DNA of 64,000 nt, taken from positions 49,453-113,452 of the IMG/VR virus record IMGVR_UViG_3300011113_000396; one strand, given 5' to 3'. Shown one piece after another: positions 36,286 to 52,511 of this stretch (its first letter is position 1; each line of letters opens with the position of its first letter). Origin of the DNA: a virus. Both the position numbers and the translations under genes were made by a program. The notes under the pieces were generated by a model. The model had not been told where the DNA came from. It did no database searches and saw nothing but the letters and a program-made list of their open reading frames with translations.

Positions 36286-36895
36286 TCTAAACATTAGTCA
36301 ATTTTATTGCTTTCTTCGTAAGGAACATATGTACCAGCACCAAGACCATATTGGTGAATTTGATAAGGTAATGGTATTTGGAATTCAATCTTGCTCAGGA
36401 AGCGCGATGACTTTCCATGTCATGACTGACTATGGATTGGTTAGAAGTAGAGTCCCAATCCACATGTTGTGCTGGAAACAAGATGCACCTCCTATGCCTC
36501 TGGATTATCTACAGCTGTGGGATTGCTTTCATGAAAATGTTTCTGTTGTAGAATATGATGCTTTATTTGATACAAGAGCAAAGGTTATTCTGAAAGATAA
36601 GTCAGAGCATTGGGGGGAATACGTTATGACATTTGATTGGTATCGAAATTCTTATTCCGATGAACCATCTCAGTATAAATGTCTTCATATGATTGCTTTG
36701 GACAATGGCAACTACACTCTACAACCAAATAATAGAATCTATTGGAAGAATATGTCATTTGTAACTAAACCTTTTCCTACAAACCCGGATTTCAAGGTTG
36801 ACAACAAGAGTTGGAGATGCGAGGGAGAAAGTGATCGCTGGATCATTGACGGACACGACGATAATTACTATTATGATATCAAGGAGAATAAATAA
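36278..36895 (+). CDS. Hypothetical phage protein
   Basis: Overlaps both neighbours; LQLWDCF, Y..TFDW, LDNGNY.LQPNNRI motifs. Confidence 0.7.
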
Positions 36896-37800
36896 TGGAT
36901 TTTTTAAAGGAAATGATTAATGCGTCTGGTAACAAATTTGCTAGCAAAGTCGAAGACGGTCTTGACGGATCTGATGTTGGTGGGTATGTTGATACTGGGT
37001 CTTATGCTTTTAATGCTCTTCTTTCTGGCAGTCTTTTTGACGGTTTACCTAATAACAAGATTACCTGTTTGGCTGGTGAGTCTGCTACTGGCAAGACTTA
37101 CTTCAGCCTTGGTATCGTTGCACAGTTTCTTGCAGCCAACCCCGAAGGCGTAGTACTATACTTTGATACCGAACAGGCAGTAACTAGCGACATGTTTACA
37201 GAGCGCGGTGTGGATCCTACTCGCGTTGCTGTTTTCCCAGTAGAAACAGTTGAAGAGTTCCGCCACCAGTGCCTGACAATCGTTGACAAGGTTCTTGCGA
37301 CAGACGAATCTGAGCGCAAGCCGATGATGATTGTCCTTGACTCACTGGGCATGTTGAGCACTGCCAAGGAAATGAATGATGTCGCTGAAGGTAAGAATAC
37401 CCGCGACATGACACGCGCACAAGTCATCAAGGGAACCTTCCGTGTTCTTACGCTGAAGCTTGGCAAGGCCAAGATTCCCATGGTTATGACAAACCATACT
37501 TATGATGTCGTTGGTTGCCTATCAGACGATGTCAATGTCCTAATGGAAGATGGAACGGTGAAGAATATCTCTGATGTTGTGGTTGGAGACAGAGTGGAAA
37601 CAATGGGCGGATCATCCTCAGTTACCAAACTATTTTCGTATGATGTGAATGAAGTTATTGAAGTTGAACTAAGTGATGGTACAACTTTCTTTGCTACCCC
37701 AAATCACAAGTTTATGACAAGAGATGGTTCTTGGAAACCTATCTCAGACATCGGGGAGGGTGAGGATATTCTTGCTGTCGAGGAGTTTGCGAAGTCGTGA
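36895..37800 (+). CDS. uvsX: UvsX recombinase N-extein fused to split intein N-half
   Basis: [32 protein letters not shown] then CLSDD...TPNH; stop after 94 intein residues. Confidence 0.93.
37516..37797 (+). mobile_element. Split intein N-half (94 aa) in uvsX
   Basis: Cys1 block [22 protein letters not shown], block B ATPNHKF; acidic. Confidence 0.9.
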
Positions 37801-38382
37801 ATAAGGAATACCAATACTCTTCGCTGCCCATCGAATGCTTGGATATGAAACTCCATTCACGACAACTTCCTTTGATCTTGGATCACATAGGGACTTCTTT
37901 AGTTTGTATGAATCTGATGTTACCGATTCCTTCCATTTTGTGGAGTTTCGTCTACCTTCAGATAATGCCTCTCCATCGTAGTTTTTTCGCAAAATGTCGG
38001 GGTCTATTGTCTTATATGTTCTACGACCTTCTGCATATGCTTGCTTCAAAGAAATGGATCTTTTGGTACGGGATTGTTCTGAATGGATTTTTCCCTTCAG
38101 AGAATCTGAAATGTTTTTCTTCCAATCAACCGAAGAGTCAGATTTTATGAACTTTTGGAATCCATCTTTGGCTAGTTCTATTCGTGTCACTTCTGCTTCT
38201 TCGGTCTTTCCGGAAAGCATTTTCCAAGCCACAAAGTCTTCTTGTTTGCCGTGTTTCTCATATAGGAGTCTGTGTGCTTCTGCGTGTTCTTTAACAGAAA
38301 GAAGAACAAGATTTGATGGGTCATCAGTTCCACCCATGTGTCTTGGTATTATATGATGTTTATGTTTTAAATTAATTTGCAT
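37744..38382 (-). CDS. HNH homing endonuclease, antisense, between the uvsX halves
   Basis: [20 protein letters not shown]...EHAEAH; NUMOD3-like KG..HSE..R.K.S; C-terminal V.GV.YPSI..AA HTH. Confidence 0.9.
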
Positions 38383-38415
38383 TACCCCATATGTATGGTT
38401 TAGGAGATTTAAACA

Positions 38416-38925
38416 ATGAGTATTCTACAAATAGTAAAAAAGACGGTACACACTAATCGTCCAACCAAGGTTTATGATTTTACTGTCGAAAACGACCACC
38501 ACTATATTCTTTCCAACGGAGTTATTTCCCACAACTCTTATGTTCCAATGAAAGAACTAGGTGGTGGATCTGGTCTAAAATATGCGGCTTCTACTATCGT
38601 AACATTGTCCAAGAAGAAGGACAAGCAGGATGATGAAGTTGTAGGTAATATCATTACTTGCAAGCTTTACAAGAGCCGACTAACCAAGGAAAACAAGATC
38701 GTTCAGGTTCAACTGAATTTCGATAGCGGTCTGAACCGTTACTACGGTCTTGTTGACCTTGCCTTGGATTACGGTATCTTCAAGAAGAACTCTACCAAGA
38801 TTGAGCTTCCTGATGGTACAAAGGTGTTTGAGAAGCATATCAACGAAGAACCTGAGAAGTATTTCACTCAGGAGATTCTAAAGCAAATTGATGAGCGCGT
38901 TCAGGAGGATTTCAAGTATGGCTGA
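38416..38925 (+). CDS. uvsX: Split intein C-half (40 aa) fused to UvsX C-extein
   Basis: TAGGAG SD; [20 protein letters not shown] then [26 protein letters not shown]. Confidence 0.93.
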
Positions 38926-39190
38926 TGTATTATTCTGTGACGGACATGACAATGCATTTATGGGTCTTATGTGGAGATTCGGACATACTGCTCCAATCGC
39001 TGCATATAGTAGACCAACAATAATAAAGAATCTAATGTCAGAAGGTATGACCCACGATGATGCTGAAGAATTTTTTGAATTCAATATAATCGGTGCATGG
39101 GTTGGAGAGGGTACTCCATGTTTCATTGAAACTATAGGAATTGATGAGGCAAAAGAAGTTGTAAAGGACTACAGCGATGAAGAAGTATAA
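38918..39190 (+). CDS. Hypothetical phage protein
   Basis: DGHD.AF.G, GMT..DA.EFFEFNI.GAWVGE.TP; start likely 38918. Confidence 0.7.
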
Positions 39191-39485
39191 CTTACGCCCC
39201 GACATGAATGCGGAGACCATGCCATTAGAAGTTGCTGATGGTAAATTTAAAGGTTACGTCTTCACTCTTGGTAAAATTCACATCAAGGAAGACAATGACC
39301 AGTTGCTTTTGGACTTCACTTATGATATTCTAGAGGGAGATATCACAGGCATTCCAAAGAAAGAATTTGATGTCATTGTAGGTGATATTGTTGTCCAATT
39401 ACTTGAGGAAGAAGAAGCCCGTATAGGCAAGGAGCCAATTGATGTCGATGGAGAAAATTATATTGAAGAATCTAGCGACGAATGA
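39177..39485 (+). CDS. Hypothetical protein, gp40 position (possible head vertex assembly chaperone)
   Basis: Between uvsX and gp41 as in T4; G.F.G......K.....L.F.YDI. Confidence 0.5.
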   Translation: MKKYNLRPDMNAETMPLEVADGKFKGYVFTLGKIHIKEDNDQLLLDFTYDILEGDITGIPKKEFDVIVGDIVVQLLEEEEARIGKEPIDVDGENYIEESSDE

Positions 39486-42532: not shown

Positions 42533-42586
42533 ATATTGACTAAATACCCAACACGGCTAGAATGCCACAACAATAAGGAAAATTTA

Positions 42587-44350
42587 ATGCAATTACCGAC
42601 CCCATACCAGAGTTTTATCCATTCTTCGCGTTATGCTCGTTGGATAGAGGCAGAATCGCGCAGAGAATCGTGGTCAGAGACTGTTTCTCGTTATTTTAAT
42701 TTCTTCGAAGAACATTTGAAGAATAACTGCAACTACAAACTTCCCAAGGAACTACGAAAGGAACTTGAAGCTGCCGTGCTCAATCTAGAAGTCATGCCAT
42801 CCATGCGTTGTCTCATGACCGCAGGAGAGGCACTTGAGCGCGATCATGTGGCTGGATATAATTGCTCATACGTTTCTACAAACAAAGTTCGTTCTTTTGA
42901 TGAAATTTTATATATCCTTATGTGCGGAACCGGTGTCGGGTTTTCCGTAGAAAGGGAATTCGTTGAAAAACTTCCTACTATTGCTGAAGAATTTACAGAT
43001 AGCGATTCACTCATTGTGGTTGAAGATTCTAAGATCGGTTGGGCTAAAGCCTACAAAGAACTATTCTCGCTACTTATTGGTGGTCAGATACCGCGATGGG
43101 ACATTTCAAAAATTCGCCCTGCGGGAGCGAGACTTAAGACCTTTGGTGGACGAGCGTCAGGACCTGAACCTCTGGAAGACCTTTTCCGCTTTACCGTTGA
43201 AACCTTCCGTAAGGCAGCTGGTCGTAAACTCACGACGGTCGAATGCCACGATATCGTATGCAAAATTGCTGAAATCGTCGTTGTAGGTGGCGTTCGTCGT
43301 TCTGCTCTCATCTCTCTATCGTCACTTGACGATGACCGTATGCGTAATGCAAAGAGCGGTGCATGGTGGGAGAACAATGGTCAACGCGCACTAGCAAACA
43401 ACTCTGCCTCATACAAGAGCAAGCCAGACATGGAAACCTTCATGGACGAATGGGTTGCACTTGTCAAGAGCAAGAGCGGTGAGCGTGGTATCTTCAATCG
43501 TCAGGCCGCAAAGAACCAGATCAAGCGTCTTGGTGATCGTCGCAATCCAAACTATGACTTCGGAACCAATCCTTGCTCAGAAATTATTTTGCGTGATCGT
43601 GAGTTCTGCAACCTATCTGAAGTCGTGATTCGTGCTGACGATACTCCAGATACTCTTGCTCGTAAGGTTCGTCTTGCTACCATTCTTGGTACATTCCAGT
43701 CAACTCTTACAAAGTTCCGCTACCTGTCAAGCGATTGGCAGAAGAACTGTGAAGAAGAGCGTCTGCTTGGTGTGTCTCTGACTGGTATCATGGATAACGA
43801 GATCACTAATGGTCGTGCGGGTGATCTACCAGATCTACTTGAGCATCTACGCCATGTCGCGGTGGATACTAACAAGGAGTATGCTCATAAGCTAAAAATC
43901 AACGAGTCTGCTGCAATCACTTGCGTCAAACCTTCAGGGTGTGGAACTTTAGACACTAAAATTAAAACTACAAATGGTATTATGTCATTTGCTGAGATAT
44001 TTGAATTCTGTGGAAAAGATCCAGAAAATCTATTAGAGGGATCGTGGGTACAACCACCTGTTGAATTGTTTGTATATGATCAAAACGACGATCTAAGAAA
44101 GGTTACAAATCTCTATGTAAAGGGTATGTCACCCGTATTTGAGATTGAAGATGAACACGGTAATGTTTATAAATTTTCACCAGAACATAAATTACTGACC
44201 AATAATGGTTGGAAGTGTATGCGAGAATTAACTACAGATGACTACATCATGTCATTTGATCCTCTTGAAAATCTTAAAACACTATATACTAGTGGTGTAT
44301 TAAACCAAGAGGAAGTTAATGAATCGAAAGAAAATAAGACGTTATTATAA
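42587..44350 (+). CDS. nrdJ: Class II (B12) ribonucleotide reductase N-extein fused to split intein N-half
   Basis: SRYARW, MPSMR, GYNC, GTGVGFS, GGVRRSALI, GTNPCSEI, CNLSE, TCVKPSG then CGTLDT...SPEH. Confidence 0.93.
   Translation: MQLPTPYQSFIHSSRYARWIEAESRRESWSETVSRYFNFFEEHLKNNCNYKLPKELRKELEAAVLNLEVMPSMRCLMTAGEALERDHVAGYNCSYVSTNKVRSFDEILYILMCGTGVGFSVEREFVEKLPTIAEEFTDSDSLIVVEDSKIGWAKAYKELFSLLIGGQIPRWDISKIRPAGARLKTFGGRASGPEPLEDLFRFTVETFRKAAGRKLTTVECHDIVCKIAEIVVVGGVRRSALISLSSLDDDRMRNAKSGAWWENNGQRALANNSASYKSKPDMETFMDEWVALVKSKSGERGIFNRQAAKNQIKRLGDRRNPNYDFGTNPCSEIILRDREFCNLSEVVIRADDTPDTLARKVRLATILGTFQSTLTKFRYLSSDWQKNCEEERLLGVSLTGIMDNEITNGRAGDLPDLLEHLRHVAVDTNKEYAHKLKINESAAITCVKPSGCGTLDTKIKTTNGIMSFAEIFEFCGKDPENLLEGSWVQPPVELFVYDQNDDLRKVTNLYVKGMSPVFEIEDEHGNVYKFSPEHKLLTNNGWKCMRELTTDDYIMSFDPLENLKTLYTSGVLNQEEVNESKENKTLL
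43940..44347 (+). mobile_element. Split intein N-half (136 aa incl. tail) in nrdJ
   Basis: Cys1 CGTLDTKIKTTNG, block B FSPEHKLLT..GW; sequence turns AT-rich at the junction. Confidence 0.88.
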
Positions 44351-44957
44351 GGAAAATAAAGGACCAATACCAAAAGGATATGAAATACATCACATAATTC
44401 CTCTTTACGAGGGAGGATCAAATGATATTTCAAATCTAATAGCACTTTCATTTGAAGATCATAAAAAAATACACCATGAAAGATATTTAAAAAATGGTAA
44501 TGTTAGAGATTTGATGGCTAGTAAAATTGGAATATCATCTTCTCAACTAAAACTAGAAAAATGTAGATTGGGTGGTAAAAAAGGCGCAGAAACGCAAATA
44601 AAAAATAAAATTGGAATTCACTCTCAAACAAAAGAAGAAAGATTGATATTAGCGTCCAAGGGTGGTAAACGAGGAGCATTTACTCAATCGAAATGGCAAT
44701 CTGAATTTGGAAAACGGGGTGGAATCAAAAATAAAGGTTTTGTTTGGTTGACTAATGGTATTGATAATATTAAATATACAAAAAAACAACAACAATTAAA
44801 AAGCATAAAACAGTTCATTGAAGAAAATAAAGACTATAGAATAGGAAGAACAGAACCTAAACTCATCTGTTCTGTGTGTGGAAAACAATTAAACGCAAGA
44901 GCAATCGGAAGATTTCATAACGAAAGGTGTAAACATGGTAAAAATAAAATCAATTAA
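44319..44957 (+). CDS. HNH homing endonuclease between the nrdJ halves
   Basis: EIHHIIPL..GG.ND..NL..L...H...H; GGK.G repeats; W.TNG; C-terminal CSVCGK..H...C. Confidence 0.9.
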   Translation: MNRKKIRRYYKENKGPIPKGYEIHHIIPLYEGGSNDISNLIALSFEDHKKIHHERYLKNGNVRDLMASKIGISSSQLKLEKCRLGGKKGAETQIKNKIGIHSQTKEERLILASKGGKRGAFTQSKWQSEFGKRGGIKNKGFVWLTNGIDNIKYTKKQQQLKSIKQFIEENKDYRIGRTEPKLICSVCGKQLNARAIGRFHNERCKHGKNKIN

Positions 44958-45612
44958 AAAACTTTCACCCGAATTTATGGTCGATATAGAGGTAGAGGGT
45001 ACTCACTCATATCAACTATCCAACGGATGGATTTCTCACAATACAGTTTCGCAACTTGTGGATGCTGCTTCGGGTATTCATGCTCGTCACGCTAGTTATT
45101 ACATTCGTCGTGTTCGCGCTGACCGTAAGGACCCAATCTGCCAGTTTATGATTGACAAGGGATTCCCTGCCGAGCCATGCGTAATGAAGCCAAACCATAC
45201 TATGGTCTTCTCATTCCCCATGAAGTCTCCTGAACATTGCATTACTCGTAATGACATGACCGCTCTTGAGCAGTTGCAACTCTGGCTAACATATCAACAG
45301 TACTGGTGCGAACATAAGCCAAGCGTTACCATCACTGTTCGTGATGAGGAGTGGATGGAAGTCGGGGCGTGGGTATATTCTCACTTCGATGAGATCAGCG
45401 GTATTTCGTTCCTTCCGCACTCAGATCATACTTATCGTCAGGCTCCCTATGAAGATTGCACTAGAGAGCAATACGAGGCACTTTTGAATAAGATTCCATC
45501 AACAGTGGATTGGTCAGAACTGTCTAAGTATGAAAAGGAAGACAACACCACTGGCACACAAACATTCAGTTGCACTGCTGGCTCATGTGAGCTAGTAGAT
45601 TTGACTAAATAA
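44935..45612 (+). CDS. nrdJ: Split intein C-half (36 aa) fused to NrdJ C-extein
   Basis: MVKIKSIKK...MVDIEV.GTHSY.L.NG.ISHN then TVSQLVDAASGIH, YYIRRVR, WCEHKPSVT, GISFLP, terminal CTAGSC. Confidence 0.93.
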   Translation: MVKIKSIKKLSPEFMVDIEVEGTHSYQLSNGWISHNTVSQLVDAASGIHARHASYYIRRVRADRKDPICQFMIDKGFPAEPCVMKPNHTMVFSFPMKSPEHCITRNDMTALEQLQLWLTYQQYWCEHKPSVTITVRDEEWMEVGAWVYSHFDEISGISFLPHSDHTYRQAPYEDCTREQYEALLNKIPSTVDWSELSKYEKEDNTTGTQTFSCTAGSCELVDLTK

Positions 45613-49003: not shown

Positions 49004-49534
49004 TTATACTTTTCTACGCTTTTTTCTACGAAGCATAGTAAGTTTGTTTCTAGCAGGAACGGCTATTTCATCTGTTTCTGGGGGATATCCTAATCCCTGA
49101 ATACCACCCCCACTAACTGAGTTTGCTGGTACTCCACCACCTTCACCTTCTTCTTTCAATAAGGCTCTGATGGAAATATTTTTCTTCATAAATGTATCCT
49201 CAAGAAGATACATCGCGTCATCGTTAGTTAGATTGTAATTTTTTGATTCTGCAAGGAATAGATTAAGAAGGGATAAGAAATTCCCATACTGGGCTTGAAA
49301 TTTTGGATCGGGGACCATGTCAAAATAATATTTAATCTTTACTATAATCACCTCCAGAGGATCAGCATTTTTTTCATCAATAGCAACTTCTGGGGGTATT
49401 AAAAAGTTTCCATCGTTGTCTATGATACCTTTGCGGTAAAGATCTAATGATGTGTAATCTGAATTGATCATCTGCACGAATTTGTACATCGTGAACGGAC
49501 GAACATACGCACTTGCTGACATATAATTACTCAT
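49004..49534 (-). CDS. Hypothetical protein (T4-like head-region type)
   Basis: Y..GIID.DG.FL; LLKEE then P.NSV.GG.I.GLG and basic tail. Confidence 0.7.
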   Translation of the reverse strand: MSNYMSASAYVRPFTMYKFVQMINSDYTSLDLYRKGIIDNDGNFLIPPEVAIDEKNADPLEVIIVKIKYYFDMVPDPKFQAQYGNFLSLLNLFLAESKNYNLTNDDAMYLLEDTFMKKNISIRALLKEEGEGGGVPANSVSGGGIQGLGYPPETDEIAVPARNKLTMLRRKKRRKV

Positions 49535-49910: not shown

Positions 49911-50388
49911 TGGGTGCGAGGAAGATATCAAGGACATAAAGTTTTCTCTTATTCTTCGAAACATTAATATGAAGATCCATACCCACGCCACCATTGAATT
50001 CCTTGATACCATCGGTCATTAAGAATCCATCTTTGAGAAGATCATGCTCAGGTGAGGTTCCAAATGTTCCACCATATCTTGTAATTGGGAAAACATTTTC
50101 ACCAACATTTAGTGGAGTCTGCATGGTAAAGTTAAAATCAATACCTACAAGATTCAATTTTGCTCTTAGAAGAGCGATTGCACCCTTTGGATCAATATAG
50201 TCTCTTGATCCGAAAGCATTGAGGAACGCATTTACTCTTTCAAATTGTTCCCCGTTTTCAATTCTAAAGGCTCCAAAATCTGAAACGGCAGATCTTGTGG
50301 TTCTTGTGGGTTCGCCGGGTTGACCGAGGCCACCAGCGAAATAGTCTTCGTTTTCGAAAAGTTTTTGTGTTAGATCTTTAAATTTCAT
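49903..50388 (-). CDS. Hypothetical protein
   Basis: Overlap-coupled; MKFKDLTQKLFE leader; YIDP..A...LR.KL..VG, YGG.FG. Confidence 0.7.
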   Translation of the reverse strand: MKFKDLTQKLFENEDYFAGGLGQPGEPTRTTRSAVSDFGAFRIENGEQFERVNAFLNAFGSRDYIDPKGAIALLRAKLNLVGIDFNFTMQTPLNVGENVFPITRYGGTFGTSPEHDLLKDGFLMTDGIKEFNGGVGMDLHINVSKNKRKLYVLDIFLAPNA

Positions 50389-52511
50389 TTCTTGAATTCC
50401 TCAAATATTCCCTTCAGATAATTGATCCTCATATTCTGAGGTTCCATATCCTTTACCTTCTTAGTATTTATCATTTGATGAATCATATCACCGGGAGTTT
50501 CTTCGATTTTTGTGCCTTTATTGATCTTGAATTGATATTCGTTCATTGCTTCGGTGTCATCTGGAGATGAATCGCAACCGCATCCTTCAACGGCTTCTGA
50601 AATCTTTCTCCATCCTCCACCCTTCTTTTTGTAGCACTTTGCAGCCCAAGCATTGGCATAGGCTGAATTTCCTGTTATGGTTACAAATCCATTTTGAATC
50701 ATAACCCATGTATTATTTTCAGTCTCGGGACACCATACTTCTTCAGTACCAGCATCTTCAATTATTAGATTTTGGGTATTGTGTGTTTTCTTATTTCTAA
50801 TGATTGTAGCGGCCTTCATTTCTGGATATTTGTCAGAGAAAGAAACATGATAACCATTTAAGGATGCTGCGAGAATAGCAGCGTAGAAATGATCTTCGTT
50901 CTTCTGGCTAAAACCAAATGTATGACGTTTTTCTATCTTTGTGCTGATTCCCTGATCGTGGCCATCATAAACAATTGCACTGGCCAAAAATATTTCTCTT
51001 TGTTCTTTGGACATAGAAAGAACTTTTTCTGTCCATGAGTTTTTCTTTGACCAATTTTCTAAAATTAAATCAGAAGAATTGTTAAGTTCTGAGCAACAAA
51101 CTAGTTGCATGTGCTTATTGATGTCCTTAGTTTCCACCAAACCAGTATTTTGATAGTCAGAACCACTCTTAACTACCCATTTGTGATTAGGGGTACATTT
51201 TATCTTAAATCCGGTTGCTTTGCCCATCTCAACAATAGGAGCATCATCAAAATGATGTAGATTAAGTATTGGTTTCCATTCAAGTTCATCATTTTGAATA
51301 TTGTATGATAAAATTTCATCTCCAATCACAAGATTGTGGTAGCTTTCTGGTCCATTTCTAGTAATCGCTAGAGAATCCATTGTAACACATGGATATACAT
51401 CAAACTTTTGTTTAGCTTGAGCAATGCAAGCACTCCACTTTTTCTTATCTGTTGGAGAGTTCTTTTCCAAAAGAACTCCATATGAAAGAGCTTCTTCCGA
51501 AAGAAGAGAAGAAACGCTTCTCTTGCTCCAGAATCTACAAGCCCAGTATCTAGCCTTCCAGATGGGACCGGGATTATCGCAATTGTGGCGTGCGCGGAAG
51601 TTCTTTCTTCTGGCTGGATTATCTCTTTTGATTTCCATGTTTGGATCGCCAAACTCAACCTTTACGACATTTCCCTTGTCGTTCTTGACATAGACCTTAT
51701 ACTTCTTGACATCGCCACGCATTGGCTTATTTAGTTTGACTTTTTTGCCTTTGTGTTCGGCAGCTTCTTCAAGGAAACCCCAGCTATTTTCTTGGAAGTA
51801 CTTATTTTCTGATTCAAAGAAGACGGCAACAATTTCATCGCCAGAGCATTCTTCGATTGTTTCAAGGCCGCGATCAAGCCCCATGGATTCAACAATCAAC
51901 TTCAAAGTGCCATCCCGGTGATAAGATATTTCTTGGACTTCTACGGGAGTGGTTGCATTCTTGTAATAAACATCCCCCACATTCAGCTGTCTGGCAAGCT
52001 TGCCAACAGAGTGAATTACGACTCCGACTGGAGTTTTCATTTCGACAATCTTCTTGTCCATTTCACAGGGAGGAGTCTTATATTTTTTGTTTCTTTTTGA
52101 GATATCCATAGATTGACCGGGTGTGTTGGCTTTCGTCTTTTTATTTATGTCCATTAATTCGTCTGGAATTATTGTTTCTTCGTTCATCTTCTTTTTCTTT
52201 GCTGCCCCGGTCTCGACATAGACAGGCTTTCGGCCTTTACCGCCTTCGCCTTTTTCGTCATATCCAGCCTTTTTCTGAGCTTTTCTTTTTCTTTTGACAA
52301 ACGACGAAATACCTTTTTTACCTAATTTGTTTGCTTTTTGTTTTGATAAACAAGCAGAATAGGCCTCACCTTCCTTGGCATCTCCGCATTTACCGACTCT
52401 TTTTCCCGATGAGTCATATCTGTCCCAGCCGGGTTCTGAATTGGCAGATTCGTCGTGAAACCATTTGCCCAAACCAGAATCTTTATATACCTCATCGAGT
52501 TTATTTTTCAT
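50385..52511 (-). CDS. Multi-module basic protein (DUF5872/DUF6321-like modules) containing a cis intein
   Basis: GLGKWF...CG...C; V.LNKP....KK..VYVK...V.FGDP.M...R..FRARH.C...YWAC; KFDVYP[intein]SAYANAW..K.YKKKGG.W. Confidence 0.8.
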   Translation of the reverse strand: MKNKLDEVYKDSGLGKWFHDESANSEPGWDRYDSSGKRVGKCGDAKEGEAYSACLSKQKANKLGKKGISSFVKRKRKAQKKAGYDEKGEGGKGRKPVYVETGAAKKKKMNEETIIPDELMDINKKTKANTPGQSMDISKRNKKYKTPPCEMDKKIVEMKTPVGVVIHSVGKLARQLNVGDVYYKNATTPVEVQEISYHRDGTLKLIVESMGLDRGLETIEECSGDEIVAVFFESENKYFQENSWGFLEEAAEHKGKKVKLNKPMRGDVKKYKVYVKNDKGNVVKVEFGDPNMEIKRDNPARRKNFRARHNCDNPGPIWKARYWACRFWSKRSVSSLLSEEALSYGVLLEKNSPTDKKKWSACIAQAKQKFDVYPCVTMDSLAITRNGPESYHNLVIGDEILSYNIQNDELEWKPILNLHHFDDAPIVEMGKATGFKIKCTPNHKWVVKSGSDYQNTGLVETKDINKHMQLVCCSELNNSSDLILENWSKKNSWTEKVLSMSKEQREIFLASAIVYDGHDQGISTKIEKRHTFGFSQKNEDHFYAAILAASLNGYHVSFSDKYPEMKAATIIRNKKTHNTQNLIIEDAGTEEVWCPETENNTWVMIQNGFVTITGNSAYANAWAAKCYKKKGGGWRKISEAVEGCGCDSSPDDTEAMNEYQFKINKGTKIEETPGDMIHQMINTKKVKDMEPQNMRINYLKGIFEEFKK
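50667..51389 (-). mobile_element. Contiguous intein (241 aa) with one LAGLIDADG-like motif
   Basis: Cys1 CVTMDS.AITRNG, block B CTPNHKW, FLASAIVYDG, block F VWCPET.N.TW, terminal GN then Ser+1. Confidence 0.9.

Follow-up and report, generated by a model that had tools for sequence, protein, structure and literature searches.

How can a phage obtain an intact recombinase from a gene that lies in two pieces, with a nuclease gene running the opposite way between them? The question is raised by a locus at 36895-38925 of a stretch of 64,000 nucleotides (nt), hereafter the window, corresponding to positions 49,453 to 113,452 of the IMG/VR virus record IMGVR_UViG_3300011113_000396, where the recombinase gene uvsX is represented by two separate open reading frames (ORFs). 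An earlier annotation made from the letters and their ORFs (the sequence-only reading) had taken this arrangement for a uvsX gene fractured by a naturally split intein, with an antisense HNH gene between the halves. The interpretation favoured here, to which we assign as a whole a probability of about 85%, is a fractured uvsX gene, in an uncultured T4-like marine phage, carrying a mobile cassette, composed of an N-intein, an inverted HNH gene and a C-intein, with protein trans-splicing and HNH-driven homing.

On the forward strand, uvsX-N (ORF1, 36895-37800) encodes 301 aa, i.e., UvsX residues 1-207 (the N-extein, 207 codons at 36895-37515, including the Walker A sequence GESATGKT and ending in NHTYDVVG) followed by a 94-aa N-intein (94 codons and the stop at 37516-37800), whose first residue, Cys1, is residue 208 of ORF1 (codon TGC at 37516-37518) and directly follows NHTYDVVG. 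Further downstream on the same strand, uvsX-C (ORF2, 38416-38925) encodes 169 aa, namely a 40-aa C-intein (40 codons at 38416-38535) ending in the block G sequence VISHN, the nucleophile Ser+1 (codon TCT at 38536-38538), which is the first residue of the C-extein, and the remainder of UvsX residues 208-336 with the L2-loop region (129 codons and the stop at 38536-38925). With 94 + 40 aa, the intein is split in the canonical manner, the break falling between blocks B and F. In between and on the reverse strand lies an intact, free-standing gene of 212 aa for a HNH homing endonuclease (37744-38382), the product having an N-terminal HNH core and a small, putatively DNA-binding C-terminal module. 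Its 3' end overlaps that of the N-intein tail to tail and in antisense over 57 nt (37744-37800), and its start faces that of uvsX-C across a head-to-head gap of 33 nt (38383-38415), which holds a Shine-Dalgarno sequence, a late-promoter-like box and a conserved motif. On rechecking the sequence, all of the ORF coordinates, the junction residues, the overlap and the gap given by the sequence-only reading were confirmed.

The two ORFs together account for one UvsX protein. Against PHROG 97 (UvsX-like recombinase), ORF1 matches profile positions 21-227 and ORF2 positions 228-330, which are exactly adjacent (E=2e-60 and 1.5e-16, respectively); in profile searches, Pfam RecA matches fall on the exteins, and Hint and Intein_splicing matches on both ORFs, the C-intein corresponding to positions 122-155 of the Intein_splicing profile. 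All features of the UvsX/RecA family were found, i.e., the RecA core, Walker A and B, the L2 region and similarity to characterised UvsX proteins, the latter including the PDB entries 9gbg (E=4.7e-81 for ORF1 and 2.9e-48 for ORF2, with the C-extein aligning with residues 207-333) and 3io5, the UvsX of T4 (E=2.5e-24). Uninterrupted UvsX relatives number in the thousands, and the sum of the two exteins (207 + 129 = 336 aa) equals the length of the nearest uninterrupted alleles. One of them, P0039 (336 aa), is 97% identical to the N-extein (residues 1-207) and 94% to the C-extein (residues 208-336), and reads VVG-A-YVP across the insertion site; the region of the predicted spliced junction, VVG-S-YVP, is found contiguous in the solved UvsX 9gbg. 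Because residue 49 of ORF2 aligns at about residue 211 of Escherichia coli RecA, the break lies inside the L2 loop region, which bears out where the sequence-only reading had placed it. The cassette interrupts uvsX between the codons for Gly207 and residue 208, where the L2 DNA-binding loop begins.

As for the intein itself, it exhibits sequence features of class 1, namely a Cys nucleophile after the N-extein, T-x-x-H in block B (here TPNH), a penultimate His, a terminal Asn and Ser+1. In an alignment of 22 relatives of the N-half (about 300 aa each, with a common junction), C208, T268 and H271 are invariant; on the other side of the break, 44 of the best 120 clusters matching ORF2 are C-halves inserted at the same position (site a), and HN/S, the slash marking the splice junction, is kept in 44/44. 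Compared with the relative L001, the ratio of nonsynonymous to synonymous substitution rates (dN/dS) amounts to 0.06 in the N-intein, 0.10 in the HNH gene and 0.04 in the C-intein, at dS values of 0.8-1.6. When both halves are taken together in a six-frame read-through of the genome, PF14890 scores 55.7 bits, above the curated cut-off of 35.8. The N-intein carries a net charge of -12 and the N-terminus of the C-intein is basic, the same polarity as known from DnaE split inteins; charge complementarity of split intein halves has been discussed previously (PMC2677866). UvsX is most likely made by protein trans-splicing. Two variant N-halves were also encountered. In P0026 (310 aa), block A of the N-intein contains a 10-aa insertion. 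In P0011 (315 aa, from a metagenome), the N-intein ends after ..TELFS and is fused directly to the distal part of the C-extein (DSGLNRYY..), the L2 region being absent, so that the allele either derives from a deletion or is a chimera of the assembly.

The layout is by no means confined to the window. Scans of IMG/VR and JGI metagenome contigs provided the contexts of 12 distinct site-a loci (the window, L001, L003, L004 (=L084=L168), L083, L086, L088, L089 (=L171), L090, L169, L170 and L172), and in every one of them (12/12) the HNH gene between the intein halves is on the opposite strand. Fractured uvsX at site a is common in marine phage metagenomes. Identity to the window across these loci ranges from 43 to 82% for HNH and from 51 to 98% for the exteins. 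In the eight relatives measured, the 3' ends of HNH and N-intein overlap by 39-84 nt in six, by about 100 nt in L001, and are separated by a 10-nt gap in L089; the head-to-head gap between HNH and uvsX-C is about 30-55 nt. In L001 (3368-4333, P0006), the stop of the N-intein is lost and the frame extends by another 17 aa into the region antisense to HNH.

The nuclease assignment is supported by a match to PF01844 (HNH) of 25.0 bits for a cut-off of 21.4, by PHROG 655 ("homing endonuclease," E=1e-23) and by the conservation of the motif residues H9/H10, N24 and H33/H37 in 32 relatives. An AlphaFold2 model of the protein is confident locally (predicted local distance difference test score of 90.7) and elongated, with a predicted template modelling score of 0.49. 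Its first 40 or so residues superpose on the HNH cores of pyocin AP41 and colicin E9 with a root-mean-square deviation of 1.0-2.0 Å over 35-39 residues, and weak Foldseek matches are found to I-HmuI and to the DNA-binding domain of I-TevI. The model fits a modular free-standing homing endonuclease.

Comparison of the parts with one another suggests what such an enzyme would do. Across eight loci, the identities of N-intein and HNH co-vary (89/82, 72/62, 69/61, 69/62, 48/46, 41/50, 40/51 and 38/45%, respectively) but disagree with extein identity, which indicates that the cassette moves horizontally. The discordance runs in both directions: P0004, P0006 and P0008 share N-inteins 99-100% identical with exteins only 67-70% identical, whereas the exteins of L169 and P0002 are 93-98% identical to those of the window, with an intein 67-72% (69-72% for L169) and a HNH 62% identical. 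The flanks of the junction may have kept a trace of such movement. In comparison with L005 and L006, the intein-less alleles nearest to the window (about 90% nt identity), 11 mismatches cluster at -16 to +23 of the junction (about 40 nt), where the L005-type allele reads ...GTAGTAGGA GCC TAT...; farther out (-360 to -33 and +24 to +390), about 1-3 mismatches are counted in each 30 nt, although bins of 7-9 also occur in the 5' part of the gene. Over the last 30 nt of the N-extein, the window matches the intein-bearing L003 and L004 at 28/30 and 27/30 positions, vs 25/30 for L005. On this small sample, the cluster would be the trace expected from homing with a short co-conversion tract, or from target-site immunity. 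Structurally and evolutionarily, the locus can with high confidence be read as a real, functional-looking and mobile split-intein cassette in uvsX.

Regarding expression, a sigma-70-like promoter candidate lies 5' of uvsX-N (36846-36874, forward strand; TTGACG, 17-nt spacer, TATTAT; 10/12 matches). No other sigma-70-like site is usefully placed. The candidate is a consensus match only, and in the region such sites are no more numerous than in shuffled sequence. Neither a terminator nor a second sigma-70 promoter was found between the uvsX halves, and a single rightward transcript is for this reason probable. The Shine-Dalgarno sequence of uvsX-C, AGGAG, is at 38402-38406 on the forward strand, 9 nt 5' of the ATG of ORF2. 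Upstream of HNH, the motif AACCATACATA (38400-38390, reverse strand) occurs once in the window and is kept in nine loci, including one with a free-standing HNH gene (L085); the form shared by the nine is approximately (T)A(A/T)AAT-CATAC, and part of this conservation is the uvsX-C Shine-Dalgarno sequence on the other strand. In folds of the HNH leader from six loci, no hairpin that would sequester the ribosome-binding site stands out (z-scores -0.6 to +0.7). That the antisense orientation has a regulatory role is given low confidence, and the suggestion that late transcription of HNH would damp uvsX-C by antisense is speculation.

In the mechanism that we propose, uvsX-N and uvsX-C would be transcribed rightward, probably in one RNA crossing the antisense HNH gene, and each half would be translated from its own ribosome-binding site, that of uvsX-C being AGGAG. 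The 94-aa N-intein, which is acidic, would then associate with the 40-aa C-intein into a class-1 Hint fold, and the two would splice in trans through Cys1, TPNH, the block F Asp, the penultimate His, the terminal Asn and Ser+1, giving a 336-aa UvsX with the junction VVG-S-YVP. HNH, for its part, would be expressed under minus-strand signals of its own within the 33-nt gap and, during mixed infections, would cut or nick the intein-less uvsX (VVG-A-YVP), upon which recombinational repair would copy the entire cassette into the cut allele. Because it is on the opposite strand, HNH can neither be translated from the uvsX message nor be fused in frame with the intein; nuclease expression would therefore be uncoupled from that of uvsX and the intein kept split. 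That such inteins stay split could be explained simply by the inability of an antisense nuclease gene to turn into an in-frame domain of the intein.

Some observations weigh against a spliced and homing cassette. Taken singly, the intein halves reach 28.5 and 23.5 bits on the Intein_splicing profile, vs the cut-off of 35.8, and a contiguous ancestor of the site-a intein is absent among the matches listed (120 and 150). With the HNH model, Foldseek returned local matches to the HNH core and no significant global match. Concerning the two signals that the sequence-only reading had placed in the 33-nt gap, the Shine-Dalgarno sequence for ORF2 stands and the late-type box is weak: it reads TTTAAATC (38413-38406, reverse strand, -31 to -24 of the HNH start), a 6/8 match to TATAAATA, and the window shows no enrichment of TATAAATA (8 observed vs 5.6 expected). 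In L086, L088 and L090, a perfect TATAAATA is present at -36 to -29 of the HNH start.

Other explanations of the locus differ in which part of the cassette they deprive of its function. The most serious accepts the split intein and holds that HNH no longer homes here, being a passenger, a nicking enzyme for marker exclusion or a domesticated gene. Many mob and HNH genes of T4 indeed have no known target or nick instead of cutting (PMC2988022), and relatives of this HNH occur in other contexts, beside an intact uvsX in L085 and inside a fractured gp41 in L064; nevertheless, HNH is under purifying selection, and its co-variation with the intein over eight loci, together with the discordance between cassette and exteins, is what would be expected if HNH moves the cassette, so that a non-homing HNH appears unlikely. 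A second explanation would leave homing aside and deny splicing, the intein halves merely holding the UvsX pieces together non-covalently. Split phage enzymes that work unligated are known, as for the NrdA of Aeh1 (PMC2677866, PMC3045599), but none of the catalytic splicing residues (Cys1, T..H, HN and Ser+1) varies across the 22 N-halves and 44 C-halves, strong purifying selection acts on them, and a bulky 134-aa insert at a break within the L2 DNA-binding loop would likely disturb function; we regard this as very improbable.

Still less credible is a decaying, non-functional uvsX broken by insertion of a nuclease gene, for which the existence of the truncated metagenome allele P0011 and the fact that the genome record is an incomplete fragment could be invoked: all three ORFs remain open, identity between the exteins and intact alleles is 94-97%, every part has a dN/dS far below 1, and the layout persists in loci whose exteins are just 51-68% identical. 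Removal of the insert at RNA level, by a group I or group II intron with an endonuclease ORF, has a precedent in the recA genes of Bacillus and phage 0305phi8-36, which have group I introns with endonuclease ORFs (PMC2677866), and yet it has virtually no chance of being the correct account here, as Hint blocks A and B continue the frame of the N-extein, blocks F and G run in frame into the C-extein, and the nuclease ORF is on the opposite strand. An Rfam scan of 36500-39300 on both strands returned no intron family at E<=1 and two chance snoRNA-like matches only, and an intron of either group was rejected. The fractured uvsX with a split intein and trans-splicing, as put forward by the sequence-only reading, thus holds up on the conservation of residues, purifying selection, the sum of the exteins, the identity to intact alleles, the lack of an intron model and the recurrence of the layout in at least 12 loci.

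The arrangement of a fractured gene is in itself already known. Dassa et al. (2009) described 26 fractured loci in eight enzymes, including gp41, IMPDH, DnaE, NrdA, NrdJ, ligase and terminase, where all three ORFs are on one strand and the nucleases are GIY-YIG or Vsr-like; HNH nucleases were predicted as possible and none was observed, and UvsX appears solely as an upstream neighbour (PMC2677866). Like those genes (e.g., gp41-1, NrdJ-1 and IMPDH-1), the uvsX of the window is a conserved phage DNA-metabolism gene in a T4-like marine phage background, with a canonical split between blocks B and F and, between the halves, an endonuclease gene that either shortly overlaps its neighbours or is set off from them by short gaps. 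In terms of the definition of a fractured gene given therein, the locus possesses the split intein and the endonuclease but departs from it in strand and in nuclease family. What is new is the host gene uvsX, the HNH nuclease and the inverted orientation conserved in 12/12 loci. The sequence-only reading had left it in doubt whether a uvsX or an inverted example had been reported; for the literature searched, the answer is given by the above study, which has no UvsX among its host enzymes and one-strand ORFs only, and by a search on UvsX with an intein or split intein, which found no paper describing a UvsX intein. The class of fractured genes is hence extended to HNH nucleases, to an inverted layout stable across a marine phage family and to a phage recombinase, the very enzyme on which T4-type homing depends.

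In T4, SegA is a free-standing GIY-YIG nuclease whose gene adjoins uvsX and which cleaves uvsX, and homing needs UvsX (PMC2988022). Like SegA, MobE/nrdB and "collaborative homing," which pairs an intervening sequence with a separate nuclease gene, the cassette would have a nuclease gene outside the reading frame promote the inheritance of itself and of flanking DNA; unlike the free-standing endonucleases of T4, the HNH of uvsX is nested in an intein, so the insertion would be neutralised at the protein level. A likeness also exists with nrdA/mobE of the Aeromonas phage Aeh1, where a phage gene of DNA metabolism is likewise divided into two ORFs by a HNH gene (PMC2677866, PMC3045599), but there no intein is present, the genes run in the same direction and the two halves come together non-covalently. 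Inteins are known in other proteins of the same superfamily, i.e., mycobacterial RecA and Pyrococcus RadA (PMC4513877), though these are contiguous and at other sites. With 94 + 40 aa, the canonical uvsX split differs from the atypical split of inteins of the VidaL type. Some of these VidaL-type (Lake Vida) split inteins are reportedly named after UvsX. Their N-fragment is of 16 aa (PMC13014065). The family described here provides dozens of natural, canonically split Cys1/Ser+1 intein pairs of 94 + 40 aa with charge-complementary halves.

Relatives of the HNH gene are also found away from site a. In L085 (1679-3361), a free-standing HNH gene, 53% identical, again lies in inverted orientation, with gp43 on one side and an uninterrupted uvsX of 341 aa on the other, and has the motif TATAATCATAC 5' of its start, as in the window. 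In L064 (4062-6615), where the upstream uvsX is intact, the gp41 helicase is broken in Walker A (..MAG/CVSPDTKV..) by an intein with a very short N-fragment, and an inverted ORF in the gp41 gap contains a 40% relative of the HNH of the window. Tentatively, and with less than even odds in our estimation, one HNH lineage might habitually insert backwards into inteins or beside its targets. As no antisense gene can be read through in frame, every insertion of this sort would convert a contiguous intein into a lastingly split one, and the lineage would recurrently create split inteins (in uvsX, and in gp41 in L064), besides setting up convergent transcription that would time the nuclease relative to the host gene.

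Besides site a, uvsX harbours a second intein site, 11 aa downstream (site b, GGG/C...HN/SG.KY), which makes up 23 of the top 120 C-half clusters. Site-b loci (L007, 3001-5169; L065, 186-2347; L037, 3001-5224) resemble those of site a in host gene, split intein and free-standing nuclease, but differ in position, in having the nuclease on the same strand and in nuclease family, L007 and L065 having a HNH with NPFYGK repeats and L037 a GIY-YIG-like gene. Both inteins are met in a single uvsX in L088 (2007-4506), where the site-a split intein with inverted HNH is followed by an extein of 11 residues and a contiguous site-b mini-intein, within a C-half ORF of 303 aa.

The window contains a further fractured gene, nrdJ, encoding a class II ribonucleotide reductase (42536-45612), entirely on the forward strand: nrdJ-N with its N-intein (42536-44350), a HNH gene of 212 aa (44319-44957), and a 36-aa C-intein (ISHN/T) with nrdJ-C (44935-45612). 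It thus shares with uvsX the genome, a split intein and a free-standing HNH, and differs in the same-strand nuclease. Identity between the two inteins is only 26%, and their HNH proteins have just the core in common; two such distantly related pairs in one genome are candidate orthogonal tools for protein ligation. Lastly, a 708-aa ORF to which no Pfam family is assigned (50385-52511, reverse strand) shows a weak match to Intein_splicing at 51036-51323 (E=1.3e-5, below the cut-off); the match may be fortuitous or may reflect a Hint-like module of a structural protein.

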